This document shows positions 1 to 13,320 of a stretch of DNA of 14,568 nucleotides, piece by piece. This DNA is from a virus (lineage: Duplodnaviria > Heunggongvirae > Uroviricota > Caudoviricetes). How positions within the stretch are numbered: position 1 is the first letter of the stretch; each line of letters opens with the position of its first letter. Below the pieces are notes generated by a model. That model was not told the DNA's origin. It worked only from the letters and a program-made list of their open reading frames with translations, and did not search any database. The DNA lies in IMG/VR virus record IMGVR_UViG_2537562019_000027, one strand, 5' to 3'. A program made the position numbers and the translations under genes.

Positions 1-467
<467 letters not shown>

Positions 468-564
468 TTAGTTTTTTTATTCGCATAAAGAATATACTTA
501 ATAATATATACAGTAAGAACCATTAGTAACGATAACCCTGCTATCAGCTCAGTGATGTAGATAG

Positions 565-834
565 TCATTGCTTCATCTCCCTTTCCATTTCATCAATGTC
601 AACGTCATCAGGAAGATGGGAGCAATACGCCGCTATACCATGATGATTTATCTCATACCCTTTGAACGTTACCATCTGGCGCGTAATCTCAACTTCGTTC
701 AGGAATCCGTCATCGCATAACTGCCTGGCTATTTTCGATTTGGTCTGGATTATTGGTAGTGCCTGTTCTTTCAAAGCGCATGATATTTGTGCATCCCATG
801 CCTTTTCGAGAATGGCTAATTGTTTTTTATTCAT
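565..834 (-). CDS. Hypothetical phage protein (89 aa), translationally coupled to the helicase gene
   Basis: ORF with ATG overlapping the helicase stop (TGATG at 836-832); no family recognised. Confidence 0.55.
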   Translation of the reverse strand: MNKKQLAILEKAWDAQISCALKEQALPIIQTKSKIARQLCDDGFLNEVEITRQMVTFKGYEINHHGIAAYCSHLPDDVDIDEMEREMKQ

Positions 835-2270
835 CAGAATCCTCCTTTCTTCTTGGACTGCGGTTCCTCGCGTTCACGTCGGCGCATTTCAGCAGACTGT
901 TGGTCTGTGTCATAAATAGCGCCATTTGCCTGAATGCAATACACCGTGCCGGTATTGCCATGACGATTGAGGCGAAGGATTAGTTCGGTTTCACCAGGAG
1001 GAACGCTGTCATCAAAAGCACCTTCACGATGGATCCCCACCCAATAATCGCAATCCTGTTCAATCTGCCCTGTATCTCGTGAGTCACTTGGTAATGGGCG
1101 TTTATTGGTTCGGCTTTCCAGTGCGCGGTTAAGCTGTGTCAGAAGCACAACAACGCAATCAAGCTCTTTGGCAAGGTTCTTCAGTCCTTTGGTGATCATG
1201 CCGTAAGCAAGGTCGTTGCGATCGGCCTTTTCAGCGGTCATTAGTGTCAGGTAATCGACCAGAATCATGCCAACACATCCTTTTTCTCGCTTGATTCGAC
1301 GGCTTTCGCTGACGATTTGAGCCAGAGATAATCCCGGCGTGTCGTCGATGTAAAGCAGGTCGATTTCACTCAAGCGATTGGCTGTTTCGATCGCCCTGTT
1401 GAAGTCACCATCGTAATCACCCTGATAGCCGTCATCAGCGTCATTTGTCGCCGGAAGGTAAAAAATATTCGGGTTAACACCTGACTTCTGTCCTACCAGT
1501 TTTTCCAGTATCTGGTCACCGGGCATTTCAAGGCTGAACATCAGAGCGGGCTTTTTCTCATGCACTGCGCAGTTGATTGCCATCTGGCTGTATAGCGTCG
1601 TTTTCCCCATCTTAGGGCGAGCGCCAATGACAAACAGAGAGCCTTTCACCAGACCTTTCGGTGACAGCATCCTGTCCAGCGATGGGATCCCTGTGCTCAT
1701 TCCCCGTTGTTCGCCTGATGGGTCAAATCGCTTCTCAAGGTCGCTAACCCAGTCTTCCATGACCTCGCCAAATGAGCGAAGGCCGCGACGCGATCCGGTT
1801 TTTGCATGGTCTGTCAGTTGCGTGAAAATCGCCTGAATAGCTTCGTACTTCTGCGTCGCAGTCATTCCGTTGCGGGAATAGAGCAATTCCGTCGCTTCAG
1901 TCATGCGGTTGATGGCGTAGCGTTCCATTGCGGTTTCGCGAACCTGCATTGCATAGGCAACGATGTTTGCGGCGCTCGGCGTGTTCTTTGCGATCTCAGC
2001 GATATAAGCAAAACCGCCAACAGACGCCGTTAACGATTTACGCTCCAGTTCATCGAAAAGCGTCAGGCCATCTACTGGCTTTTGCTCCCGGTGCATTCTG
2101 GTTATTTCTTCGAAAAGGATTTTGTGTGATCGGCTGTAAAATGAATCAGGCTTCAGCATCGCCAGAACTTTCTGGACGCGCTCACTGCTGTCATCATCCA
2201 GAAGCAATCCACCAATCACCGCCTGCTCTGCCTCGATGCTATGGGGCGGCGCATAAAAATTATCGGTCAT
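834..2270 (-). CDS. DnaB-family replicative DNA helicase (P22 gp12-like)
   Basis: 478-aa ORF with Walker A GARPKMGKTT and DnaB-like layout. Start taken as ATG at 2270-2268 (MTDNFYAPP...); the ORF track extends to a GTG at 2285. Sits immediately downstream of the O-like gene. Confidence 0.9.
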   Translation of the reverse strand: MTDNFYAPPHSIEAEQAVIGGLLLDDDSSERVQKVLAMLKPDSFYSRSHKILFEEITRMHREQKPVDGLTLFDELERKSLTASVGGFAYIAEIAKNTPSAANIVAYAMQVRETAMERYAINRMTEATELLYSRNGMTATQKYEAIQAIFTQLTDHAKTGSRRGLRSFGEVMEDWVSDLEKRFDPSGEQRGMSTGIPSLDRMLSPKGLVKGSLFVIGARPKMGKTTLYSQMAINCAVHEKKPALMFSLEMPGDQILEKLVGQKSGVNPNIFYLPATNDADDGYQGDYDGDFNRAIETANRLSEIDLLYIDDTPGLSLAQIVSESRRIKREKGCVGMILVDYLTLMTAEKADRNDLAYGMITKGLKNLAKELDCVVVLLTQLNRALESRTNKRPLPSDSRDTGQIEQDCDYWVGIHREGAFDDSVPPGETELILRLNRHGNTGTVYCIQANGAIYDTDQQSAEMRRREREEPQSKKKGGF

Positions 2271-3150
2271 CGTGTTCACCCTCACGAACTTTCAGGTAGG
2301 TATTATCGTTAAGCAGGAAATCAAATCCCTTTTTGTGCCAGACGGTTCCTCGCTGATGGTTTGGGCGCTCTTCGAACATCCATCGGCAATTTTCGCCTAC
2401 GTATCTCAAATAATTTCTCCAGTCCTGCATCGTGAACCCATGCCCGTCAAGCTGGCGGGTTATCACTCCGGCTTTGCGCCAGAACGTTCGGATCTGGTTT
2501 TTACGCTTGTCATTCAGTGCGCGGATTCTTGGCGCTTCAGGAAGGATTTCGTGGTAAGCATCGACAACATCCTGACAGCTAACGGAAGGTTTTTTCTTGT
2601 CAGACTTTTTGTCTGCTGTGGCACTCTCTAATACGTCAGTATTAGAGATATTATTTATATTATTGTTTATGGACAACCGTTGGACAACCGTTGGACAATC
2701 TCCGCTGAGAGCCTCGCCATTACTGGTGTTTGCGTTGGACAACCGTTGGACAACCGTTGGACAATTTTTTGCCTGAAAATCGTCATATTTAACGATTGTA
2801 AACAGGCTAAATTTCTTCCCCATCGAGCAAATATTAAGCATCCCTTTCGACTCAAAAGTCCGTAATAAGCTCCGAACTTTGTTGTCGGGGATGAATGTTT
2901 CTCTGACCAGCGACGGGCGTCCAGTTATCATCTGACCGCGATCAACAGTTATCGGCCCGATATCCGTATTGACGACAGTAGATTCGTGATTAGCCTTGAG
3001 GATTAAGTGAAGCCAAAGATGTACTGCCTGAGAGTCCTTATAGAGCCTGCTGTCCATAAACTGGCGGTGTATATAGGCATACCCCATACTGGATGCCTCC
3101 TGATGTTGTACAGGGTTATGCCTGTAATCAGCTAACTTAACGACGCCCAT
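2260..3150 (-). CDS. Replication initiator, lambda O-like (iteron-binding), with the origin inside the gene
   Basis: 296-aa ORF directly upstream of and overlapping the helicase gene; contains two clusters of tandem 11-bp iterons plus AT-rich flank, as for lambda ori within O. Confidence 0.75.
   Translation of the reverse strand: MGVVKLADYRHNPVQHQEASSMGYAYIHRQFMDSRLYKDSQAVHLWLHLILKANHESTVVNTDIGPITVDRGQMITGRPSLVRETFIPDNKVRSLLRTFESKGMLNICSMGKKFSLFTIVKYDDFQAKNCPTVVQRLSNANTSNGEALSGDCPTVVQRLSINNNINNISNTDVLESATADKKSDKKKPSVSCQDVVDAYHEILPEAPRIRALNDKRKNQIRTFWRKAGVITRQLDGHGFTMQDWRNYLRYVGENCRWMFEERPNHQRGTVWHKKGFDFLLNDNTYLKVREGEHDDR
2668..2765. repeat. Replication origin iterons: two clusters of 3 tandem copies of GTTGGACAACC, with AT-rich flanks
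   Basis: Tandem copies at 2671-2699 and 2734-2765, separated by about 35 bp; AT-rich stretches at 2641-2670 and 2765-2815. Confidence 0.8.
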
Positions 3151-3298
3151 GTTTCACTCCTGCTTTGGCTAGTCTGTAAACACCAACAAGGCGCTCTGCG
3201 AACGCCCTGTTATTTGCTGCGGCTACCACTAATCCCTCAGGTGAATCAGGGTGTCGAATCTCTTCTTTTTCCTGGTATTTCTTACGACGTTTTGTCAT
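3137..3298 (-). CDS. Small hypothetical protein (53 aa) between cII-like and O-like genes
   Basis: ATG at 3298-3296 preceded by AGGAG at 5-nt spacing; stop just inside the O-like start region. Translation MTKRRKKYQEKEEIRHPDSPEGLVVAAANNRAFAERLVGVYRLAKAGVKHGRR. Not in the ORF track (under 60 aa). Confidence 0.45.
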   Translation of the reverse strand: MTKRRKKYQEKEEIRHPDSPEGLVVAAANNRAFAERLVGVYRLAKAGVKHGRR

Positions 3299-3330
3299 AA
3301 TTACTCCTGTGGATTGATCCAGTAATTCCC

Positions 3331-3627
3331 TCAGAATTGCATATCAATTTGCTTAAAATCCTCGGTGGCGGCCGGGGATTTTTTCTTTGTGATTTCATCA
3401 AGCGCATACTTAAAAGCCCTGCTAATTGGACTGATGTCTGATGCCATTCCGAAAGCACACAAGACCGAAGCAATAAACCGCCAGTCCGTTCTGCTTATCT
3501 TCGATTCATGACAACCAATCATCTTTGCCAGACCGCGCTGAGTAAGCGTTGACAGGTTGATAAGTAAATCTGTTTCAGCGCGATCAACGTCACGCTGTGT
3601 TGGCTTGCTGTAGCTTGCTTGTGCCAT
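3331..3627 (-). CDS. cII: CII-like transcriptional activator (P22 C1 / lambda CII family)
   Basis: 98 aa; C-terminus KKKSPAATEDFKQIDMQF resembles lambda CII ...KKRPAATERSEQIQMEF; located after cro and nutR as in lambdoid phages. Confidence 0.75.
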   Translation of the reverse strand: MAQASYSKPTQRDVDRAETDLLINLSTLTQRGLAKMIGCHESKISRTDWRFIASVLCAFGMASDISPISRAFKYALDEITKKKSPAATEDFKQIDMQF

Positions 3628-3660
3628 TTGTTAATTTTCCTATATTGATATTGAGTTATA

Positions 3661-3685
3661 GCGGCACACCCAATGGATTTGCCGC
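3661..3685 (-). terminator. Hairpin between nutR and cII (tR1-like candidate)
   Basis: Inverted repeat GCGGCA...TGCCGC with 6-bp stems; no clean U-run, so a rho-dependent or weak terminator at best. Confidence 0.3.
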
Positions 3686-3694
3686 TGATGTTTG

Positions 3695-3735
3695 CTCACC
3701 CGGTTAGAGGTGAAAGGCCAGAACTGTTAAAGAGC
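3695..3735 (-). promoter_or_regulatory. nutR: boxA (GCTCTTTAACA, minus strand 3735-3725) and boxB hairpin (3714-3695)
   Basis: boxA matches the consensus and is identical to the nutL boxA; boxB stem TCACC/GGTGA with a loop containing CUAACC, shared with the nutL boxB loop. Confidence 0.6.
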
Positions 3736-3742
3736 AATTTGC

Positions 3743-3928
3743 TTATGCCGCTTGGCGGTAAGCACTTTCTTGATACTTCAGGGCGCCAGCTGTAACGATT
3801 TCCAATCGATAGGCGTCTTTCTCTGGGATAACTTCTTTCCACTGAGAGACTGCTGCATCGCTAATGCCTAGTGCTTTAGCAACAGCACGCTGGGTTCCGA
3901 AGTGGTCAATAACATCTTTTTTGTACAT
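3743..3928 (-). CDS. cro: Cro repressor (P22 Cro-like)
   Basis: 61 aa, MYKKDVIDHFGTQRAVAKALGISDAAVSQWKEV..., which I recognise as near-identical to P22 Cro; divergent from c2 across an operator region. Confidence 0.9.
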   Translation of the reverse strand: MYKKDVIDHFGTQRAVAKALGISDAAVSQWKEVIPEKDAYRLEIVTAGALKYQESAYRQAA

Positions 3929-4008
3929 AGACTCGCTCCGAAATTAAAGAACACTTAAATTATCCACCAAAGGAATCTTAAGTCAAGTTTATTTAAGATG
4001 TCTTAACT
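3929..4008. promoter_or_regulatory. OR/PR/PRM region with P22-type palindromic operators
   Basis: Minus-strand PR: TTGACT (3986-3981), 17-bp spacer, ATAATT (3963-3958), GGAG before the cro ATG. Operator-like palindromes ATTAAAGAACACTTAAAT (3943-3960), around 3969-3989, and ATTTAAGATGTCTTAACT (3991-4008). Confidence 0.7.
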
Positions 4009-4659
4009 ATGAATACACAACTGATGGGTGAGCGTATTCGCGCTCGCAGAAAAGAACTCAAGATTAGGCAGGCTGCCCTTGGCAAGATGGTTGGCGTGTC
4101 TAATGTTGCTATTTCCCAATGGGAGCGATCTGAAACTGAGCCCAATGGCGAAAACCTATTGGCCTTAGCCAAGGCTTTGCAGTGCTCCCCTGATTACCTG
4201 TTGAAAGGAGAGGATAGTCTTTCAAACATTGCCTATCACAGCAGGCATGATCCAAGAGGTTCGTATCCTCTAATTAGTTGGGTAAGCGCAGGATGTTGGA
4301 TGGAAGCTGTAGAGCCATATCATAGGCGTGCAATAGATAACTGGTACGACACAACGGTAGATTGTTCTGAAGACTCTTTTTGGCTCGACGTTAAAGGCGA
4401 TTCAATGACTGCCCCGGCAGGACTGAGTATTCCTGAGGGGATGATTATTCTCGTCGACCCAGAAGTCGAACCACGTAATGGAAAGCTGGTAGTCGCCAAA
4501 CTTGAAGGGGAAAACGAGGCGACATTCAAAAAGTTAGTTATTGATGCCGGTAGAAAATTCCTGAAACCACTCAATCCACAATACCCAATGATTGAAATCA
4601 ATGGGAACTGTAAAATCATTGGCGTTGTCGTTGATGCCAAGCTAGCAAACCTTCCTTAA
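4009..4659 (+). CDS. c2: C2/CI-type prophage repressor (HTH plus LexA-like S24 peptidase domain)
   Basis: 216 aa, MNTQLMGERIRARRKELKIRQAALGKMVGVSNVAISQWERSE...GDSM...K, which I recognise as near-identical to P22 C2; start abuts the operator (leaderless-like). Confidence 0.95.
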   Translation: MNTQLMGERIRARRKELKIRQAALGKMVGVSNVAISQWERSETEPNGENLLALAKALQCSPDYLLKGEDSLSNIAYHSRHDPRGSYPLISWVSAGCWMEAVEPYHRRAIDNWYDTTVDCSEDSFWLDVKGDSMTAPAGLSIPEGMIILVDPEVEPRNGKLVVAKLEGENEATFKKLVIDAGRKFLKPLNPQYPMIEINGNCKIIGVVVDAKLANLP

Positions 4660-4679
4660 GGGGCTTTCGCCCCTTTTTT
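4660..4679 (+). terminator. Rho-independent terminator after c2
   Basis: GGGGC-TTTC-GCCCC followed by TTTTTT immediately after the c2 stop. Confidence 0.75.
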
Positions 4680-4723
4680 ATTTCCCGTTAAAAATCAAAG
4701 ACAAACTAAATTCACGCCCATAA

Positions 4724-4778
4724 AATTAAGTTTTCTTCAAAAATGCACTTGACCAATAAATTAAGAAGTCTTAAATTT
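4724..4778 (+). promoter_or_regulatory. OL/PL: promoter TTGACC-17-TAAATT overlapped by P22-type operator palindromes
   Basis: TTGACC at 4749-4754, TAAATT at 4772-4777; operator-like AATTAAGAAGTCTTAAATT (4759-4777) and AATTAAGTTTTCTTCAA (4724-4740). Confidence 0.6.
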
Positions 4779-4823
4779 AAGCCATCAGCAGGACGCTGGA
4801 AGCCAAACGGAACAGATTGGCAG

Positions 4824-4863
4824 GCTCTTTAACATCGACGGACTCTCAACCTAACCGTTGAGA
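4824..4863 (+). promoter_or_regulatory. nutL: boxA (GCTCTTTAACA, 4824-4834) and boxB hairpin (4844-4863)
   Basis: boxB is TCTCAAC-CTAACC-GTTGAGA, a 7-bp stem with 6-nt loop; lies between pL and N. Confidence 0.65.
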
Positions 4864-4973
4864 CCAGAACTTGAGTGGTTTTGGGGATGGCGCGAATTGC
4901 AGCTGCAAGACAGCGATCGAGAAGATAAGCACCTCGACGCGTCATGCGCCAAAGCCACTTAAAGGAGACCATC

Positions 4974-5279
4974 ATGGTAACCATTGTCTGGAAAGAATCC
5001 AAAGGTACGGCAAAAAGCCGCTACAAAGCTCGCAGAGCAGAACTTATTGCCGAGCGACGCAGTAATGAAGCACTGGCGCGAAAAATTGCGCTAAAGCTCT
5101 CTGGTTGCGTCAGAGCAGACAAAGCAGCATCACTAGGAAGCCTTTGCTGCAAGAAGAAAGAAGAAGTCGTTCGAAAAAATAGAAGTATTTATTACAAAGA
5201 TTCAAACCCGTTAGGAAACAAAATTCATGCAGTCCAAAAAATAAAATTGTACAGTAAACTACCGTACGGTGCTTATTGA
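4974..5279 (+). CDS. N: Antitermination protein N (phi21-type arginine-rich motif)
   Basis: ATG at 4974 with AGGAG 6 nt upstream; N-terminal GTAKSRYKARRAELIAERR is the arginine-rich boxB-binding motif I recall for phage 21 N; positioned after pL/nutL. Confidence 0.8.
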   Translation: MVTIVWKESKGTAKSRYKARRAELIAERRSNEALARKIALKLSGCVRADKAASLGSLCCKKKEEVVRKNRSIYYKDSNPLGNKIHAVQKIKLYSKLPYGAY

Positions 5280-5281
5280 GT

Positions 5282-5620
5282 ATGCTTATGGTGAAAAAGA
5301 CTATTTATGTTAATCCTGACCGCGGACAAAACAGAAAAGTATCTGATAGAGGTCTTACATCTCGAGACAGGAGGAGAATAGCGAGATGGGAAAAAAGGAT
5401 AGCATATGCATTAAAAAACGGTGTAACACCTGGATTTAATGCTATAGATGACGGTCCTGAATATAAAATTAATGAAGAACCAATGGACAAAGTTGACAAA
5501 GCATTAGCAACACCATTTCCTCGCGATGTCGAAAAAATTGAAGATGAAAAATATGAGGATGTAATGCACAGAGTTGTTAATCACGCTCACCAACGAAATC
5601 CAAATAAAAAATGGTCATAG
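5282..5620 (+). CDS. Hypothetical protein (about 110 aa), low-GC moron gene; start uncertain (ATG 5282 or 5288)
   Basis: ORF in an AT-rich segment immediately after N, followed by a strong terminator; weak SD; no family recognised. Confidence 0.45.
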   Translation: MLMVKKTIYVNPDRGQNRKVSDRGLTSRDRRRIARWEKRIAYALKNGVTPGFNAIDDGPEYKINEEPMDKVDKALATPFPRDVEKIEDEKYEDVMHRVVNHAHQRNPNKKWS

Positions 5621-5641
5621 CCCACTTCGGTGGGTTTTTTA
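5621..5641 (+). terminator. Rho-independent terminator
   Basis: CCCAC-TTCG-GTGGG followed by TTTTTT, directly after the stop of the 5282-5620 ORF. Confidence 0.65.
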
Positions 5642-5656
5642 TTGTCTGAACAAATC

Positions 5657-5745
5657 TAATTTACTACCGCAAGCCACGCAGTGAAATGGGTGTGACTTGT
5701 GTTGGTCGCCAGAAAATGAAATTAGGCAGCAAACCACTTATTTGA
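5657..5745 (+). other. Diverged second copy of the N gene 3' end (no start codon); probable recombination remnant
   Basis: In-frame translation YRKPRSEMGVTCVGRQKMKLGSKPLI* parallels the C-terminus of the N ORF (YYKDSNPLGNKIHAVQKIKLYSKLPYGAY*), with nucleotide similarity (CAAAAAATAAAATTGTACAGTAAAC vs CAGAAAATGAAATTAGGCAGCAAAC). Confidence 0.5.
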
Positions 5746-5753
5746 GGTGAGAT

Positions 5754-6224
5754 ATGACAAAATCATGGAGCGTACCTTTTCCTGAATCAGAAACTGAACA
5801 TGATGGAATGCCTGTTTTCTGGAGATTCCAGGCGACAGTTGAAGAAGATGGGATAAAAATATTCGCACTTCAATATATAGCTTTTCATCAGACAGAGCAT
5901 TATGCATGGTTGGTTCCTGCGCATTGGATTGTTGATTTTAAACCAGCACCAAATCAGTGGTTACAGGAATGGAAACAAAAGAGAAATAGATATGCAATTA
6001 AGAAAGTAGCAAAAAATGCAGAAAGATCTTTTGCATTCCCAACGAAGAAACTTGCCATTGAAAGTTTATTGCGCCGGAAGAAATACCATTTAATGAGAAT
6101 CAAACAAGATTTGGCTGTTGTATCAACTCTTGTTGATGGGATGAAGAATATTGATACATCAACACCAGATATTGAATATAACTTTGGGCACAACCAAGAA
6201 ACAGAAAATTGGGTATTTTATTAG
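5754..6224 (+). CDS. Hypothetical protein (156 aa), low-GC moron gene
   Basis: ATG with GAGGTGAG SD; AT-rich codon usage; no family recognised; no obvious transmembrane segments. Confidence 0.6.
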   Translation: MTKSWSVPFPESETEHDGMPVFWRFQATVEEDGIKIFALQYIAFHQTEHYAWLVPAHWIVDFKPAPNQWLQEWKQKRNRYAIKKVAKNAERSFAFPTKKLAIESLLRRKKYHLMRIKQDLAVVSTLVDGMKNIDTSTPDIEYNFGHNQETENWVFY

Positions 6225-6418
6225 TACGAGTAAGCACTGTGTATTCATTCCAACGAGTGAATACACGGAGCAATGTCGCTCGTAACTAAACAGGAGCCGA
6301 CTTGTTCTGATTATTGGAAATCTTCTTTGCCCTCCGATGTGGGGGGCTTTTTATATGCATACCAATAACGCTTCACTCGAGGCGTTTTCGTTATGCAATC
6401 AAACAGAAGGAGCATCCT

Positions 6419-6589
6419 ATGCAACAGTTCGCTATTGCAGGGGCGGCATCGGTTCGCCCTTTCAACCCGATTTTATCGGTACAGCATTCACGAAAAAATA
6501 TTTTAACCGGAGCAGACTTTAAACAACCAAGAATGAAAAGCTTGCTCGAAAAGCTTTGGGATATTTTGAAACAACAAGGCCGTCCATGA
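6419..6589 (+). CDS. cIII: CIII-like protein (FtsH inhibitor family, lambda CIII homolog)
   Basis: 56 aa, AAGGAG SD; MQQFAIAGA...SLLEKLWDILKQQGRP resembles lambda CIII MQYAIAGW...SLLERITRKLRDGWKRLIDILNQPGVP. Confidence 0.7.
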   Translation: MQQFAIAGAASVRPFNPILSVQHSRKNILTGADFKQPRMKSLLEKLWDILKQQGRP

Positions 6590-6744
6590 GTTTTACAGAT
6601 AACTGGTCAGACGAAGAATTCATTCGTCAGATGAAAGAATTAATCGGTAACGAAGGAGATATTCATGTCACTTGCAACCACAGTGAAGGAGAGCAAGTTA
6701 CAGAGACGCATGTACACGCAGAAAGCTCTCTGGTATCGCCATAA
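6586..6744 (+). CDS. Small hypothetical protein (52 aa), in the kil-like position after cIII
   Basis: ATGA start/stop overlap with cIII; MSFTDNWSDEEFIRQMKELIGNEGDIHVTCNHSEGEQVTETHVHAESSLVSP; function inferred only from position. Confidence 0.4.
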   Translation: MSFTDNWSDEEFIRQMKELIGNEGDIHVTCNHSEGEQVTETHVHAESSLVSP

Positions 6745-6843
6745 TGGCGACCGCGAAGGAATGCGGGTATGCCTTAATTTGTCCCGAGTCGAAGTATTAA
6801 ATCAGCGTTATTTCCTTGGGCCGTGTCCATTCTGAGGTGAATT

Positions 6844-7551
6844 ATGGATTTGAATAAATTCGATGAGCCATTCAGCCCTGAAGATATCGAATGGCGAATA
6901 CAGCAAAGCGGTAAAACACGCGATGGCAAGGTGTGGGCTATGGTGCTGGCTTATGTCACGAACCGGGCAATCATGAAACGCCTGGACGATGTTTGCGGCA
7001 AAGCAGGATGGCGCAATGAATACCGCGATATTCCCAACAACGGCGGCGTTGAATGCGGCATATCAATAAAGATTGATTCCGAATGGGTAACCAAATGGGA
7101 TGCTGCTGAAAACACGCAGGTAGAAGCCGTCAAAGGTGGTCGTTCAGGTGCAATGAAGCGCGCTGCCGTTCAGTGGGGAATCGGTCGGTATCTGTATAAC
7201 CTTGAGGAAGGTTTCGCACAAACATCTCTCGATAAAAAGCAGGGATGGCACAGGGCAAAACTCAAGGATGGAACAGGATTTTACTGGCTCCCTCCATCGC
7301 TGCCGGGATGGGCAATACCAGCATCAGATAACAAACCATCACCAGAAAATACCAACCAGAAATCTCCATCGGTTGACTGCGAACAAATCCTGAAAGACTT
7401 CAGCGATTATGCGTCAACAGAAACTGACAAGAAAAAACTCATCGAGCGTTATCAGCGTGACTGGCAATTAATGGCTGGCAACGAGGAGGCGCAGGCTAAA
7501 TGCGTTCAGGTAATGAACATCAGAGTTAACGAACTAAAACAGGCGGCATAA
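6844..7551 (+). CDS. Rad52/Sak-family single-strand annealing protein (phage recombinase)
   Basis: 235 aa with GAGGTG SD; GGRSGAMKRAAVQWGIGRYLY motif is characteristic of Rad52/22-family annealing proteins; sits in the recombination module. Confidence 0.75.
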   Translation: MDLNKFDEPFSPEDIEWRIQQSGKTRDGKVWAMVLAYVTNRAIMKRLDDVCGKAGWRNEYRDIPNNGGVECGISIKIDSEWVTKWDAAENTQVEAVKGGRSGAMKRAAVQWGIGRYLYNLEEGFAQTSLDKKQGWHRAKLKDGTGFYWLPPSLPGWAIPASDNKPSPENTNQKSPSVDCEQILKDFSDYASTETDKKKLIERYQRDWQLMAGNEEAQAKCVQVMNIRVNELKQAA

Positions 7552-8019
7552 ATGTCTCACTTGGACGGAATTATTAAAAGATTCGAGTCCAGCTACAAAG
7601 TTAATGAAACAACAGGTTGCTGGGAGTCTACCTATTCAAAAAACAAAGGAGGATACACAAAATTTGTAGCCTTTGGCGTAACAATGCTTTCTCATCGGGT
7701 TGCTTTTGAGCTTTATCACTCCCCCATTCCATCTGGGAAGATGGTTTGCCACAAATGCGATAACCCATGCTGCGTTAATCCTGAACATCTCTTTTTAGGT
7801 AGCGCGCAAGAAAACATGGACGACAAGATAGCAAAAGGAAGGCATCGTGGAGCCAAGAAAGGTCATGCTCATCATGGTGCAAAATTAACAGAGTGGCAGG
7901 TTATAGAAATTAGGAAAAGACTCTCTGAAAAAGAGAGTCAGTACAAGATAGCAAAAGACATGGGTGTATCTCAATCAATTATAAGCAACATAAAAACTGG
8001 CAAGAGGTGGAGCAAATGA
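7552..8019 (+). CDS. HNH endonuclease (free-standing, homing-endonuclease-like)
   Basis: 155 aa; [26 protein letters not shown] is an HNH motif with cysteine zinc ligands; C-terminal HTH-like tail; coupled to flanking genes by TAAATG and ATGA overlaps. Confidence 0.8.
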
Positions 8020-8522
8020 GTTCTCGCGGGATAAATAAGGTGATTATCCTTGGTCGGGTAGGACAAGACCCGGAAGTTCGATACTCACCATCAGGAACAG
8101 CGTTCGCTAACCTGACAATAGCCACGTCAGAACAATGGCGAGATAAAAATACTGGCGAGCAAAAGGAATTGACTGAATGGCATCGTGTTGCTGTATCCGG
8201 GAAACTGGCTGAGGTCGTGGGGCAGTATGTGAAAAAAGGTGATCAGATTTATTTCGAGGGAATGCTGAGAACCAGAAAGTGGAAAGACCAGTCAGGGCAA
8301 GACCGTTACACAACCGAGGTTCATGTCGGAATTAATGGCGTGATGCAAATGCTTGGCGGCATTGGCGACAGCAAACAACAAGCAGCCAGCAGGCAATCAC
8401 AGAAGCCACAGCAGCAATCATCACCAGCACAACACAACGAACCTCCGATGGATTTTGACGACGATATACCCTTTGCACCAGTAACTCTCCCCTTCCCTCG
8501 TCACGCTATTCACGCAATTTAA
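8016..8522 (+). CDS. ssb: Single-stranded DNA-binding protein (SSB) with a C-terminal extension past the DDDIPF tip
   Basis: OB-fold N-terminus [29 protein letters not shown]..., Gln/Pro-rich linker, acidic tip MDFDDDIPF followed by 15 extra residues ([15 protein letters not shown]); start ATG 8016 with GAGGTGG SD. Confidence 0.9.
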
Positions 8523-8530
8523 GGACTTAC

Positions 8531-9079
8531 ATGAATCACTTAATGGTTGACCTTGAAACAATGGGCAACGGGCCATACGCGCCAGTTATTTCTATTGGGG
8601 CGGTATTCTTTGACCCGAATACCGGAGAAACAGGAGAAGAGTTCTCGGTAAATATCTCGCTTGAGTCATCAATGCGATATCGGGCGCGTCCTGACGCTTC
8701 AACGATTTTATGGTGGATGGAACAGAGTGAAGAAGCCAGAAAATCGCTAACCAGCAACACTCAAGAGCTTTCAACAGCTCTTTCATGGTTATCTGAATTC
8801 ATCATAAAGAACGCTAACCACAAATTCGTTCAGGTTTGGGGGAATGGAGCATCATTTGACTGCGTTATTCTCCGCAACAGTTATTCGCTGACAGGGCAGC
8901 CAGTTCCGTGGCAGTGGTGGAATGACCGCGACGTAAGAACAATCGTCGAGCTTGGAAAGGTAATAGGATTCGACCCTAAGCGAGATATGCCATTCAAAGG
9001 AACTCGCCACAACGCGCTTGATGATGCCATCCACCAAGCCAAATACGTTTCAGCGATCTGGAAAAAGTTAGCTAAATAA
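8531..9079 (+). CDS. DnaQ-like DEDDh 3'-5' exonuclease
   Basis: 182 aa; Exo I MVDLET, Exo II FDC, Exo III HNALDDA; AAGGA SD. Confidence 0.75.
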   Translation: MNHLMVDLETMGNGPYAPVISIGAVFFDPNTGETGEEFSVNISLESSMRYRARPDASTILWWMEQSEEARKSLTSNTQELSTALSWLSEFIIKNANHKFVQVWGNGASFDCVILRNSYSLTGQPVPWQWWNDRDVRTIVELGKVIGFDPKRDMPFKGTRHNALDDAIHQAKYVSAIWKKLAK

Positions 9080-9095
9080 TCAACCGGAGAAAAAC

Positions 9096-9389
9096 ATGCC
9101 AGCGCCTTTGTATGGTGCGGATGACCCGCGCCGCTGTTCCGGCAATTCTGTATCGGAGGTGCTGGATAAATTCAGAAAAAACTACGATCGAATAATGTCT
9201 CTACCGCAGGAAACGAAAGAGGAAAAGGAATTTCGCCACTGTATATGGCTTGCAGAGAAAGAAGAACGCGAGCGAATTTACCAGACATCAATCCGACCAT
9301 TCCGCAAAGCCACATATACCCACTTCCCTGAAATTGACCCGCGCCTGCGTCATTACCGCTCACGCTATGGCGCTATCAGTAATGACTGA
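9096..9389 (+). CDS. Hypothetical phage protein (97 aa)
   Basis: ATG with GGAG SD; tightly packed with neighbours; no family recognised. Confidence 0.55.
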   Translation: MPAPLYGADDPRRCSGNSVSEVLDKFRKNYDRIMSLPQETKEEKEFRHCIWLAEKEERERIYQTSIRPFRKATYTHFPEIDPRLRHYRSRYGAISND

Positions 9390-10003: not shown

Positions 10004-10728
10004 TTTGCCTTCACAACGCAGACTGCTTTGACATCTTTCCGCAAATCGCCAGCAACTCCGTAGATCTTGTATGTGCCGATATTCCATATGGAACAACTCG
10101 GTGTCGCTGGGATTCTGTTCTCGACCTGCAGTTGATGTGGAAGCAGATTTACCGTATTTCCAAACCGAACGCTGCAATTGTTCTGTTTTCCGCTCAGCCT
10201 TTTACCAGCGTGCTGGTCAACAGCAATCTTCGTGACTGGAAAACAGAATGGATTTGGGAAAAGCCACACGCGACAGGATTTTTGAACGCAAAAAAACAAC
10301 CTTTAAGAGCGCATGAAAATATTGAAGTTTTTTACAGAAAGCAACCGACATACAACCCACAGATGACGTATGGGCACGCCAGAAAAACCTCAACAAGAGG
10401 TAGGCTGAATACTGATGTATATGGCGATGCGCTGAAAAAGGTCGTTTACGATTCAACAAGTCGCTATCCGAGAGACGTGCAGAAATTCTCCAGCGACAAG
10501 CAAAAGCAGGCACTTCATTCAACACAAAAGCCACTGGCTCTGGTGAGATATCTGATTGAAACATATAGCAATATTGGCGACACAGTGTTGGATTTCACTA
10601 TGGGTAGCGGAACTACTGGCGTTGCGTGCCAACAATCAGGACGCCGATTTACAGGAATAGAAAAAGATCCAGAAATTTTTCGTATCGCATTAGAGCGTAT
10701 GGGAATTAAACAGGAGCATGCAGCATGA
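10000..10728 (+). CDS. Orphan DNA N6-adenine (or N4-cytosine) methyltransferase, beta-class
   Basis: 242 aa; DIPY (DPPY-type motif IV) near the N-terminus and LDFTMGSGTTGVA (AdoMet motif I) near the C-terminus, plus STQKP motif; no adjacent restriction endonuclease evident. Confidence 0.9.
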   Translation: MICLHNADCFDIFPQIASNSVDLVCADIPYGTTRCRWDSVLDLQLMWKQIYRISKPNAAIVLFSAQPFTSVLVNSNLRDWKTEWIWEKPHATGFLNAKKQPLRAHENIEVFYRKQPTYNPQMTYGHARKTSTRGRLNTDVYGDALKKVVYDSTSRYPRDVQKFSSDKQKQALHSTQKPLALVRYLIETYSNIGDTVLDFTMGSGTTGVACQQSGRRFTGIEKDPEIFRIALERMGIKQEHAA

Positions 10729-12365: not shown

Positions 12366-12533
12366 ATGCACTTCCGAGTCACAGGTGAATGGAATGGAGA
12401 GCCATTCGACAGGGTCGTCGAAGCAGAGGGCATCAACGACTGCTATAACCACTGGATGATATGGGCGCAGATAGCGCATGCAGACGTAACCAATATTCGA
12501 ATTGAAGAACTGAAAGAACACCAAGCCGCCTGA
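12366..12533 (+). CDS. Hypothetical small protein (55 aa)
   Basis: ATG with GGAG SD; stop codon sits in the loop of the following terminator hairpin; MHFRVTGEWNGEPFDRVVEAEGINDCYNHWMIWAQIAHADVTNIRIEELKEHQAA. Confidence 0.5.
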   Translation: MHFRVTGEWNGEPFDRVVEAEGINDCYNHWMIWAQIAHADVTNIRIEELKEHQAA

Positions 12534-12546
12534 TGGCGGTTTTTTA
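12526..12546 (+). terminator. Rho-independent terminator
   Basis: CCGCC-TGAT-GGCGG followed by TTTTTT. Confidence 0.6.
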
Positions 12547-12555
12547 TTGCCTGAT

Positions 12556-12571
12556 TTGCAGGTTCGATTCC
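12556..12571 (+). other. 16-nt segment matching an internal part of the tRNA-Arg (argW-type) 3' half
   Basis: TTGCAGGTTCGATTCC equals the T-stem/T-loop part of the argW sequence as I recall it (...AATTGCAGGTTCGATTCCTGCAGGGGACACCA); it diverges immediately afterwards. Confidence 0.45.
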
Positions 12572-12590
12572 CTATTCGGAGATAGCACTC

Positions 12591-12791
12591 ATGCAACACG
12601 AACTACAGCCTGATTCACTGGTTGATTTGAAATTCATCATGGCCGATACTGGCTTTGGTAAAACCTTCATCTACGACCGGATTAAGTCCGGCGACCTGCC
12701 AAAAGCCAAAGTTATCCACGGGCGAGCAAGATGGTTATATCGTGACCATTGTGAATTCAAAAATAAGCTCTTAAGCCGCGCCAATGGGTAA
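12591..12791 (+). CDS. torI: Excisionase / recombination directionality factor TorI (AlpA/Xis family)
   Basis: 66 aa, MQHELQPDSLVDLKFIMADTGFGKTFIYDRIKSGDLPKAKVIHGRARWLYRDHCEFKNKLLSRANG; I recognise this as KplE1 TorI; GGAGA SD; at the prophage end next to att. Confidence 0.85.
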   Translation: MQHELQPDSLVDLKFIMADTGFGKTFIYDRIKSGDLPKAKVIHGRARWLYRDHCEFKNKLLSRANG

Positions 12792-12864
12792 AATAGCGGG
12801 TAAAATATTTCTCACATCTAAAAAACACCATTCTAATCAATCCCCTGCCGCGTCAAGTAGATGT

Positions 12865-12879
12865 CTGCAGGGGACACCA
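12865..12879 (+). other. attR core candidate: copy of the last 15 nt of tRNA-Arg (argW-type), CTGCAGGGGACACCA
   Basis: Matches the acceptor 3' strand, discriminator and CCA of argW as recalled; 74 bp downstream of torI; flanked by inverted repeat TCCCCTGC / GCAGGGGA. Confidence 0.55.
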
Positions 12880-13267
12880 GATACCCTTCAAACGAAATCT
12901 ACCTTCACCCCGTAAAAGATGGGTTTGGCAGCACACTTGCCTTATATCTACTCATTTTTACTGCAACAGGTTGAAATCTCAGCACTGTCAGAAAGCGCTG
13001 ATGACTAAACAGCCCTGGGCCGGGCGATGTAACCATCACACAGAATCCTGATAGCGAAATATGGCGTGACTCGATACTTCACTCCGCAATGCATTCCTTG
13101 ATGAATTCGCAGGACCGTGATACACGGGACAGGTCACTGAATGACGACAATGTCCTGGAAATCAGCGAACCGCGCATCTGAAGTACATTTGAGCGACTGT
13201 ACCAGAACATGAATGAGGCGTTTGGATTAGGCGATTATTAGCAGGGCTAAGCATTTTACTATTATTA

Positions 13268-13311
13268 TTTTCCGGTTGAGGGATATAGAGCTATCGACAA
13301 CAACCGGAAAA
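13268..13311. terminator. Hairpin downstream of cscB (possible terminator)
   Basis: Inverted repeat TTTTCCGGTTG ... CAACCGGAAAA with 11-bp arms; no clean U-run on the cscB transcript side. Confidence 0.35.
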
Positions 13312-13320
13312 AGTTTACGT

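Follow-up and report, generated by a model that had tools for sequence, protein, structure and literature searches.

The locus at positions 4,974 to 6,224 of the window, i.e., the whole 14,568-nucleotide stretch of caudoviricete DNA analysed here (IMG/VR record IMGVR_UViG_2537562019_000027), is very probably an HK022-type nun module within an N gene of the phage 21 type, in an imm21-like prophage of E. coli, and the same confidence extends to the history proposed for it below. The parts follow the order phage 21-type pL/nutL, class II-tailed N, nun, terminator and fossil (the start-less 3′ end of a canonical N), which is also the order found in mEp235, mEpX1, Kapi1, PDP110P1, PA28, 06-3462 and Stx1a-converting phages. 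The first-pass annotation of this DNA had described a mosaic recombination junction with a moron between two N tails. The mosaic junction is confirmed for the locus, and so is the moron, which can now be identified as HK022 nun together with its promoter and terminator.

The N gene runs on the plus strand from the ATG at 4974, the start used in the phage 21 annotation, to the stop codon at 5277-5279 (4974-5279). Of the 101 residues of its product, 1-99 match phrog_271, the profile of the N family (E 4.6e-31), and the Pfam profile PF25694 (N_peptide) aligns to residues 4-57 only, with 18.4 bits, under the cut-off of 27.9. The 5′ two thirds of the gene (codons 1-61, 4974..5156, plus strand) carry the phage 21-type arginine-rich motif and the conserved central region, and the DNA of this part is 98.4% identical to phage 21 and 100% identical to mEp235. 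Upstream of N lies a nutL of the phage 21 type (4824..4863, plus strand), with boxA (GCTCTTTA) at 4824-4831 and the boxB hairpin (TCTCAACCTAACCGTTGAGA) at 4844-4863, coordinates which were carried over from the annotation of the phage 21 record. Over the pL-nutL DNA (4660-4980), 1 of 321 bases differs from phage 21, in which residues 8-29 of N are the boxB-bound peptide of PDB 1nyb.

The arginine-rich motif, nutL and central region of phage 21 N are thus the same as in the window, and the two proteins are identical through residue 57. Beyond this residue, however, the C-terminal modules are different, since the C-terminus of phage 21/lambda N matches the downstream fossil, whereas the C-terminus expressed from the window is of class II. 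The expressed N is therefore a chimera when compared with phage 21, as had been supposed from the first reading. The accompanying claim that its C-terminus has been swapped holds relative to phage 21 but is not peculiar to this prophage, because the swapped tail is standard in every nun-carrying phage, and the event is therefore old and widespread. The class II 3′ end comprises codons 62-101 and the stop (5157..5279, plus strand), ends in ..KNRSIYYKDSNPLGNKIHAVQKIKLYSKLPYGAY*, and overlaps the nun promoter region; the last 29 codons of N, at 5190-5276, encode YYKDSNPLGNKIHAVQKIKLYSKLPYGAY. This tail is AT-rich, with a GC content of 31%, compared with 37% for nun, 48% for the 5′ part of N and 45% for the whole window.

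The nun gene (5282..5620, plus strand, 112 codons) encodes an HK022-type transcription termination/exclusion factor, and an alternative start at 5288 would give a product that begins MVKK. The full length of the protein matches phrog_5632, 'Nun-like transcription termination factor' (E 8.5e-71), and 110 of its 112 residues (98%) are identical to HK022 Nun, with 97.6% identity in DNA. Neither its arginine-rich motif for lambda boxB nor its last 23 residues differ from those of HK022 Nun, and the latter are unchanged across six loci. The published account of Nun mechanism and specificity places the arrest segment in the C-terminus, at residues 87-109, including K106, K107 and W108 (PMC5386594).

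A putative constitutive promoter of nun, PNun (5227..5255, plus strand), lies inside N codons 85-94, with the -35 hexamer ATGCAG at 5227-5232 and the -10 hexamer TACAGT at 5250-5255. The record of O276, which has the HK022 immunity region, annotates a 'nun gene promoter -35/-10' at positions 766-771 and 789-794 (locus L015), and the window has exactly the annotated sequence, shifted by +4461. Work by King, Madsen and Weisberg from 2000 is said to give a further basis for this location. The PNun hexamers are retained in 66 of 70 nun loci, all of them viral loci from a scan of viral contigs, and the nun-less class II allele of Salmonella is without them. ATGCAG and TACAGT match the consensus poorly; a strict sigma-70 scan of 5100-5290 found no promoter, and a relaxed scan of 5100-5330 returned nothing convincing. 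At the other end of the gene, a terminator scan places an intrinsic terminator at 5619..5645 (plus strand), consisting of the stem-loop AGCCCACTTCGGTGGGTT followed by a T run. This terminator is conserved in mEp235 and in loci L010-L013, and HK022 and the divergent locus L082 carry variants with compensated stems.

Judged from these elements, the class II tail, nun and the terminator appear to form a self-contained promoter-gene-terminator unit, i.e., a moron. Its base composition deviates from that of the surroundings, and the genes that flank it are adjacent in collinear relatives without the cassette. Morons and novel joints are reportedly the features of lambdoid phage mosaicism treated by Juhala et al. 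in 2000 (J Mol Biol 299:27). Lambdoid morons are likewise promoter-gene-terminator units of deviant composition that are expressed in the prophage, lie between genes which are adjacent in relatives, and have one sharp non-homologous joint. Unlike in a typical moron, however, the promoter in the window lies inside the 3′ coding region of an essential upstream regulator, and the flanks are two pieces of one gene, which provide ready-made homology arms.

The second of these pieces is the fossil of a canonical N tail (class I, phage 21/lambda-type; 5652..5745, plus strand), which comprises codons ~69-99 and the stop, without a start codon. Its open frame (5650-5745) begins after the TGA at 5647-5649 and closes with the stop at 5743-5745; it reads TNLIYYRKPRSEMGVTCVGRQKMKLGSKPLI, and the peptide of 27 residues ends in ..NLIYYRKPRSEMGVTCVGRQKMKLGSKPLI*. 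The start-less segment that had been reported at 5657-5745 is thus real, but 5657 is out of frame, and the frame runs from 5650. The two parallel N tails of the first-pass annotation are also both present, but they are not of equal length, with 29 residues in one and 27 (26 as quoted there) in the other. Each is followed by the start of a gene, as had been noted, with the ATG of nun at 5282 or 5288 and that of the next gene at 5754.

The 3′ ends of live N genes match positions 5659-5756 closely, with 96.9% identity in phage 21 and 98.9% in vB_EcoP-611R6. These matches bear out the earlier reading that the downstream copy is the C-terminus of phage 21 N, and they agree with its description as an original 3′ end left as a fossil. 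Through phage 21 N, the fossil can also be aligned to the C-terminal part of lambda N that is resolved in the antitermination complex (PDB 6gov, chain N). The gene that follows (5754..6224, plus strand, 471 nt, 156 aa, phrog_1636) belongs to the leftward operon and is found directly 3′ of canonical N in nun-less phages. It is 99.6% identical to its counterpart in vB_EcoP-611R6, and a search of relatives recovered the uninterrupted arrangement in both this phage and Huey, where only 8 nt separate canonical N from this 471-nt gene. In phage 21, that phage's own downstream region comes directly after N.

The resemblance between the expressed tail and the fossil is weak but above chance, and the deciding evidence lies in the matches to N genes outside the window and to the family profile. 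At the protein level, the local score is 33, against 17.4 +/- 3.7 for shuffles (33 or more in 14 of 5000), and at the DNA level the score is 15, against 7.9 +/- 1.4 (reached in 1 of 2000). Two collinear, weakly similar tails in tandem are what a duplication of the N 3′ end in place, followed by divergence of one copy, would leave behind, and the first-pass annotation had described the tails in this way. This origin is almost certainly wrong, since live N genes elsewhere share 97-99% identity with the fossil, whereas the expressed tail shares only about 60% with it; the two tails share only YY..G..QK.KL.SK, and the expressed class II end is ..KDSNPLGNKIHAVQKIKLYSKLPYGAY. Moreover, a Salmonella prophage has the class II core independently, in an N gene without nun, and with deep synonymous divergence, i.e., 5 codons identical to the window, 12 with synonymous and 6 with nonsynonymous changes. 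Four or more C-terminal classes are also found on the same N 5′ region across genomes, which again stands against duplication in place. Because 12 of the 18 codons changed relative to the nun-less Salmonella N are synonymous, the class II tail is an old N allele under purifying selection, and it occurs with arginine-rich motifs of at least two types. The two tails of the window are thus two old allelic classes of N C-terminus placed side by side.

The region in which these classes differ corresponds to the lambda N residues that were observed inside RNA polymerase (PMC8632103). That a class II N is functional may be inferred from the viability of mEp235, whose N is 99% identical to that of the window, with one residue different. 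The mEp phage collection was isolated as Nus-dependent plaque formers.

The novel joint, which connects the end of the nun cassette to codon ~69 of canonical N, lies at 5646..5659, where homology to canonical N begins with AAYCK ATT TAY TAC. The same right joint is found in mEp235, PA28 and L010-L013, and a near-identical one lies behind a Nun homologue of only 66% identity; it is the only novel joint, common to almost all nun loci. The left side, in contrast, is a gradual homeologous transition, in which divergence from phage 21 sets in from about 5157 and the homology of HK022 to the window starts at 5162-5165. The junction between N and nun is itself collinear with the ordinary junction of N with its next gene. 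The first reading had held that the duplicated ends mark the exact boundaries of the cassette, which is right for the sharp right side, at about 5646-5659, but not for the left side, which is gradual from near 5157 and does not begin at 5188.

A different origin would be a single insertion of a mobile cassette into canonical N, transposition-like or site-specific, with a 9-bp target duplication, and two near-identical 9-mers are indeed present, ATTTATTAC at 5187-5195, where the tails start to differ, and ATTTACTAC at 5659-5667, at the start of the fossil. These 9-mers, however, are the homologous Ile-Tyr-Tyr codons of two N alleles, and both the divergence from phage 21, which begins ~30 nt further left, and the start of HK022 homology are misplaced for such an event. 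The cassette contains no transposase, recombinase or terminal inverted repeats, the collinear N-to-nun junction is not that of an insertion, and class II tails exist without nun. Cassettes at unrelated sites with 9-bp duplications were not found, and the 222 E. coli sites with a listed feature all lie in N-type genes. A single insertion is thus very improbable, and the side-by-side placement of two N alleles is retained.

The fossil is present in 64 of the 70 nun loci, and its tail variants, SKPLI (50), P[AT]YYD (12), PLYEG (1) and SIPLI (1), form the same set as in live N proteins. Between the window and PA28, the class II tail is 91% identical, nun 93.8%, the fossil 97.7% and the next gene 99.2%, and the genes 3′ of the fossil differ from locus to locus. 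The fossil has diverged less than the cassette and shares the tail variants of live N, and its role is therefore probably that of a homology arm for the spread of nun. The low divergence could also reflect selection on the fossil instead of repeated recombination. On that view, the downstream tail would be kept for a function of its own, as a 5′ leader of the next gene or the region where its translation starts, as a small peptide (from an internal ATG or GTG) or as an RNA element. Such a function would fit a frame that is open in every inspected copy, the high frequency of the fossil among nun loci, its presence even behind the Nun homologue of 66% identity, and the greater divergence of the cassette, although the cassette is functional; the Shine-Dalgarno sequence of the next gene also sits in the last ~15 nt of the fossil. 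However, the fossil frame contains no in-frame start with a Shine-Dalgarno sequence, the 5′ edge of the fossil is ragged and variable (CTA, CGA or AAA, and 19 nt shorter in L082), and nonsynonymous changes (I to N, M to T) are found in PA28-type fossils. HK022, O276 and HK75 manage without it, whereas the HK022-type relatives L062 and L064 have it, and its tail variants mirror those of live N, as exchange with live N predicts. A retained function is for these reasons considered unlikely, and the role of homology arm is preferred.

Of the phages with this order of parts, mEp235 is 99.4-100% identical to the window from pL through the fossil, and differs from it in the gene after the fossil, which has 624 nt; L010 has a phage 21-like orf and ral at this place. 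In PA28-type phages, a 1-nt deletion makes N 112 aa long, i.e., longer than that of the window. The inspected mEp235-like records annotate neither the fossil nor a promoter inside N, though N and Nun are annotated, and literature text searches found no description of the fossil or of an N relic in HK022.

The N 3′ end of the window is 96.7% identical to the ~120 nt that precede nun, including PNun, in HK022 and likewise in HK75 and in the hybrid O276. HK022 and HK75 keep the class II tail as a start-less relic 5′ of nun. N is absent from HK022, where putL borders directly on the class II relic at a position equal to 5165 of the window, and the stop codon of N in the relic is mutated from TGA to TGG. 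Its terminator sequence is different from that of the window, the canonical fossil is absent, and IS903 lies downstream. A candidate trace of the fossil after the HK022 nun terminator (GCAAACAACAGAAT vs. GTAAACAGAACCGT) was too short to call.

Among 5426 complete E. coli genomes, the class II tail was found in 220 and nun in 219. In the odd genome (H204), the match ends at 5266 and an IS1203 lies between N and nun, which rules it out as a nun-less class II allele in E. coli. The carriers amount to ~4% of these genomes and include Shiga-toxin strains of O26, O103 and O157, in which RefSeq calls both N and Nun hypothetical proteins. The class II tail and nun occur together in 29 phage records, and a scan of genome contigs with Nun, directed at other species, gave at least one locus. 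The linkage of class II with nun is not universal, because the divergent loci L082 and L085 have nun without a preceding class II tail. The arrangement is genuine but common, is already present in sequenced phages, and is ordinary lambdoid mosaicism.

In the proposed mechanism, PNun would transcribe nun in the repressed prophage, with the transcript ending at the terminator, and Nun would block superinfecting phages with lambda-type nut sites, while the phage 21-type nut of the prophage itself would be no target. A search of the whole window for lambda-type boxB gave a single match, with 2 mismatches, at 10429; 0.05 matches were expected by chance and 10 of 200 shuffles also had one, and the match was taken as chance, leaving no good lambda boxB in the window. 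After induction, transcription from pL would produce the chimeric N, which would act on nutL so that polymerase is carried past the nun terminator into the downstream genes.

As for the history, a single ancient illegitimate joint would have linked codon ~69 of a canonical N with the DNA that follows the nun terminator. This comparison of alleles fits either of two directions, i.e., a canonical N may have received the cassette, or a class II N-nun phage may have acquired a canonical N tail. The module would since have been bracketed by the central region of N as left arm and the fossil as right arm, and homologous double crossover between these arms would move it among lambdoid phages. Such movement would account both for the near-identity of the fossil to live N and for the varied arginine-rich motifs and downstream genes around one cassette. 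HK022 and HK75 would derive from this arrangement, with putL having taken the place of the 5′ part of N.

The C-termini of N and of Nun both thread into the RNA polymerase cleft, and nun shares the operon transcript of N after induction. The class II tail might also be a compatibility determinant, selected for protecting the elongation complexes that the phage's N has modified against Nun. Selection for compatibility would explain why class II tails and nun are so strictly paired in E. coli, and why canonical tails stand beside nun only in dead form. This additional role is a decidedly doubtful one, and the module proposed above does not include it.

The locus shows how a phage-exclusion gene may spread, with nun as a promoter-gene-terminator unit whose promoter lies within the end of N. 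The two N pieces around this unit may act as homology arms for almost any lambdoid phage. For HK022, the textbook N-less phage, the relic suggests that its ancestor had N and then nun; the region of the nun promoter consists of N coding sequence. The same N body is found with class I and with class II tails, a domain swap made by nature in which the polymerase-binding part of N could be studied. The current understanding is unchanged by these findings, and the locus is a clear example of lambdoid mosaicism.

The window covers the early region of a lambdoid/P22-like prophage in the orientation opposite to the lambda map, with genes for a DnaB-like helicase and a LexA-type repressor (4009-4659) and, on the minus strand, a cII-like gene (3331-3627) and a P22-type cro (3743-3928). 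Next come pL/nutL, N and the locus discussed here, then the remaining early-left genes, among them those for a Rad52-like recombinase and SSB, and at the right end of the window a host transporter gene. The stretch 5100-5800 is 100% identical to prophages of E. coli O114:H49 90-9280 and ETEC-2264. Between the repressor terminator and the N start, 1 of 321 bases differs from phage 21; it follows that the operators, pL, boxA (4824-4831) and boxB (4844-4863) belong to the phage 21 type. The recombination module appears to have received an insertion of the homing-endonuclease type, an HNH endonuclease ORF (7552-8019) between the Rad52-like recombinase and SSB genes. The prophage end (12460-13320) adjoins the host MFS transporter gene and carries a torI-like excisionase gene, annotated in the identical E. 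coli record; neither an integrase ORF nor a tRNA gene was found within the window.

N spans 4974-5279, with the same ATG start as is annotated for phage 21. The protein matches phage 21 N at every position up to residue 57, drifts thereafter and ends in ..KNRSIYYKDSNPLGNKIHAVQKIKLYSKLPYGAY (vs. ..KQNRIYYSKPRSEMGVTCVGRQKIKLGSKPLI in phage 21), bearing out the first-pass annotation's proposal that the N C-terminus had been swapped. C-terminal regions are the most variable parts of N proteins (PMC8632103). A comparison of 120 N homologues showed that one phage 21-type N body bears several C-terminal classes, i.e., the canonical class I (variants ..SKPLI, ..PLYEG, ..PAYYD and a lambda-like form), the class II form present in the window, a Cronobacter form (..KKPVNHPTHLINAHQKMRGKSIPLI) and a P22 gp24-like form. 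The class II tail is also found on a second arginine-rich motif type (MTVVITYLADDNARNRRRARR..), and its core (YYRDVNPLGNKIHAVQRMRLSSKPLI) occurs in the N of a Salmonella Anatum prophage without nun, where the next gene starts 9 nt past the stop. Between the window and this Salmonella allele, 5 of the 23 core codons are identical, 12 differ synonymously and 6 nonsynonymously (half of these being K/R), a codon pattern of purifying selection on the peptide; the expressed class II tail is an old allele, not a scar. The chimeric N is very probably active: the phage mEp235, with an N one residue different, comes from a collection whose members were isolated as Nus-dependent plaque formers (PMC11893012). 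In phage PA28 (L003 1689-2027), the loci L072-L077 and Stx1a-converting phages, a 1-nt deletion near the N end yields a 112-aa product (..PPYGLIEYAYGEKDYLC) whose frame overruns the nun start; the PA28 nun ORF is intact (93% identity), and the PA28 record annotates merely a 46-aa 'Nun-like' product.

Along its whole length, the product of the ORF at 5282-5620 hits the PHROG family 'Nun-like transcription termination factor' (E 8.5e-71), and it shares 110 of 112 residues with HK022 Nun; the identical part includes the arginine-rich motif and the last 23 residues, which bind inside the polymerase cleft (PMC5386594). An intrinsic terminator (5619-5645) follows. A 45-63-nt piece resembling the nun 3' end (query 294-356) stands alone in the phage 434 records OL657226/OL657227 (~31756-31818), where it is annotated 'Nun C-terminal peptide-containing protein', and likewise in about 44 E. 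coli genomes, which may reflect reuse of the polymerase-arrest peptide in a different protein. The RefSeq/PGAP label for both N (WP_000256573.1) and Nun (WP_000930322.1) in E. coli, e.g., in strain 90-9280 (L014 8875-9521), is 'hypothetical protein', despite about 4% of complete E. coli genomes having both.

Downstream of the terminator, a frame that opens after the TGA at 5647-5649 and stops at 5743-5745 reads TNLIYYRKPRSEMGVTCVGRQKMKLGSKPLI. It has no start codon, as the first-pass annotation had noted; the start of 5657 given there is out of frame, and the two tails, described as equal in length, are 29 and 27 residues long. Their mutual similarity is weak and above chance, the observed score being reached by 14 of 5000 protein shuffles and 1 of 2000 DNA shuffles. 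Decisive for the identity of this fossil is the external comparison: over window 5659-5756, identity is 96.9% with the 3' end of phage 21 N, the source suggested at first reading, and 98.9% with that of phage vB_EcoP-611R6. With phage 21 N as the bridge, the fossil can be aligned to lambda N, where it corresponds to the C-terminal 37 residues in the antitermination complex (6GOV).

The uninterrupted arrangement is present in relatives: vB_EcoP-611R6, a nun-less phage, has a 99-residue N with the canonical tail, then 8 nt, then the window's post-fossil 471-nt gene (fossil 98.9%, gene 99.6% identical), and phage Huey is arranged in the same way. Judged from these alignments, the cassette (class II tail, nun and terminator) has two dissimilar junctions. 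At the left one, canonical and class II tails are collinear up to the stop codon, the nun ATG occupies the usual position of the next gene's ATG, and divergence from phage 21 is gradual from about 5157, as if a homeologous crossover had taken place within the conserved centre of N. At the right one, N codon ~69 (AAY CKN ATT TAY TAC ..) begins no more than about 10 nt past the terminator T-run. The exact boundaries claimed earlier thus hold on the right and not on the left, which is not sharp at 5188. The same right joint occurs in mEp235, PA28 and four E. coli loci whose N has another arginine-rich motif. In the IMG/VR contig L082, a Nun homologue of only 66% identity comes after a different gene instead of the class II tail; behind it lie a terminator and, joined at nearly the same point, the fossil of a lambda-type N tail (LYKQPGERGITCSGRQKMKGRSIPLI*), so the right joint is old. 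The genes ahead of nun in L082 (557-1960) are an N of the P22 gp24 type and an orf of 147 aa. A second divergent Nun homologue (58% identity), ending in ..SKKKW without the final Ser, lies in contig L085 (494-2301) directly after the repressor/pL region without N, with a homologue of the 147-aa orf downstream.

The class II tail appears to hold the nun promoter, PNun. HK022, whose nun locus is a close relative of the window locus, lacks N and keeps ~120 nt from the 3' end of a class II N between putL and nun (HK022 record X16093; L005 1440-1559), start-less, 96.7% identical to the window tail and with the N stop codon mutated; HK75 and the hybrid phage O276 carry the same kind of relic. The O276 record annotates a 'nun gene promoter' inside it, which at an offset of +4461 and with identical sequence corresponds to a -35 of ATGCAG (5227-5232) and a -10 of TACAGT (5250-5255), within N codons 85-94. 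This position agrees with King, Madsen and Weisberg (2000), who reportedly placed a constitutive PNun directly 5' of the nun coding sequence and are said to have expected its transcripts to terminate past nun. The hexamers match the consensus poorly and were not detected in promoter scans; they are retained in 66 of 70 nun loci (TACAGT or TATAGT), and are absent from the nun-less Salmonella allele, whose nearly identical peptide is encoded by GC-rich codons. GC content is 31% in the class II tail, 37% in nun and 48% in the 5' part of N. With promoter, gene, terminator and deviant GC, the cassette therefore qualifies, by its sequence, as a moron whose promoter is embedded in the N end. An inverted repeat (GTACAGTAAACTACCGTAC, 5249-5267), called terminator-like on the minus strand by a scan, overlaps the -10 and the likely transcription start, and could be either chance or regulatory.

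Between the window and PA28, identity is 91% in the class II tail, 93.8% in nun, 83% at the terminator/joint, 97.7% in the fossil and 99.2% in the next gene, i.e., the fossil has diverged less than the functional cassette between nun lineages. Its tail variants in 70 nun loci (SKPLI 50, P[AT]YYD 12, PLYEG 1, lambda-type SIPLI 1) are the same set as in live canonical N genes, and the following gene varies by locus (471 nt in the window and PA28, 624 nt in mEp235, a phage 21-like orf plus ral in the E. coli locus L010). We infer that the fossil behaves as a homology arm, the simplest reading being repeated homologous exchange with nun-less phages through crossovers within or left of it; the different arginine-rich motifs would arise because exchange occurs in the central part of N on the cassette's other side. 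Selection may also act on the fossil itself, at least on its last ~15 nt, which contain the Shine-Dalgarno sequence of the next gene; wider selection is disfavoured by the missing start codon, the ragged 5' edge, the nonsynonymous changes in PA28-type copies and the absence of the fossil from HK022, O276 and HK75.

The class II tail and nun are each present in 29 phage records, and in 220 and (in one piece) 219 of 5426 complete E. coli genomes, respectively. The remaining class II genome, E. coli 53_142304 (L016 1315-3107), has IS1203 exactly between the N end and nun, at the position of window ~5266, where it cuts nun off from the greater part of its promoter region. In 194 complete E. coli genomes, no less than 80% of window 5100-5800 is present, a stretch that includes the fossil. 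A class II N relic with PNun in HK022, which lacks N, points to an ancestor with N followed by nun. The contigs L062 and L064 combine an HK022-type left side (putL and the start-less relic) with a canonical N fossil after nun, which suggests that HK022 descends from an ancestral arrangement of N, nun and fossil.

On the observed sequence features of the locus, the following activities can be proposed. In the repressed prophage, nun mRNA would start at PNun and end at the terminator, and Nun would bind lambda-type boxB on incoming phage transcripts and arrest polymerase, the action described for Nun (PMC5386594). The prophage nut is of the phage 21 type, and a search of the window found no good lambda boxB. 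On induction, N would be made from pL transcription and would carry polymerase past the nun terminator as far as the recombination genes.

The initial observation is real and its interpretation essentially right. The published phages mEp235 and mEpX1 have the same locus as the window, and their records list N and Nun as adjacent. No description of the fossil, the HK022 N relic or the overlap of promoter and N was found in the literature searched, in which the older HK022 work is incompletely covered. The locus is an instance of well-known lambdoid mosaicism, of a kind already known, and the gain is modest and lies in mechanistic detail.
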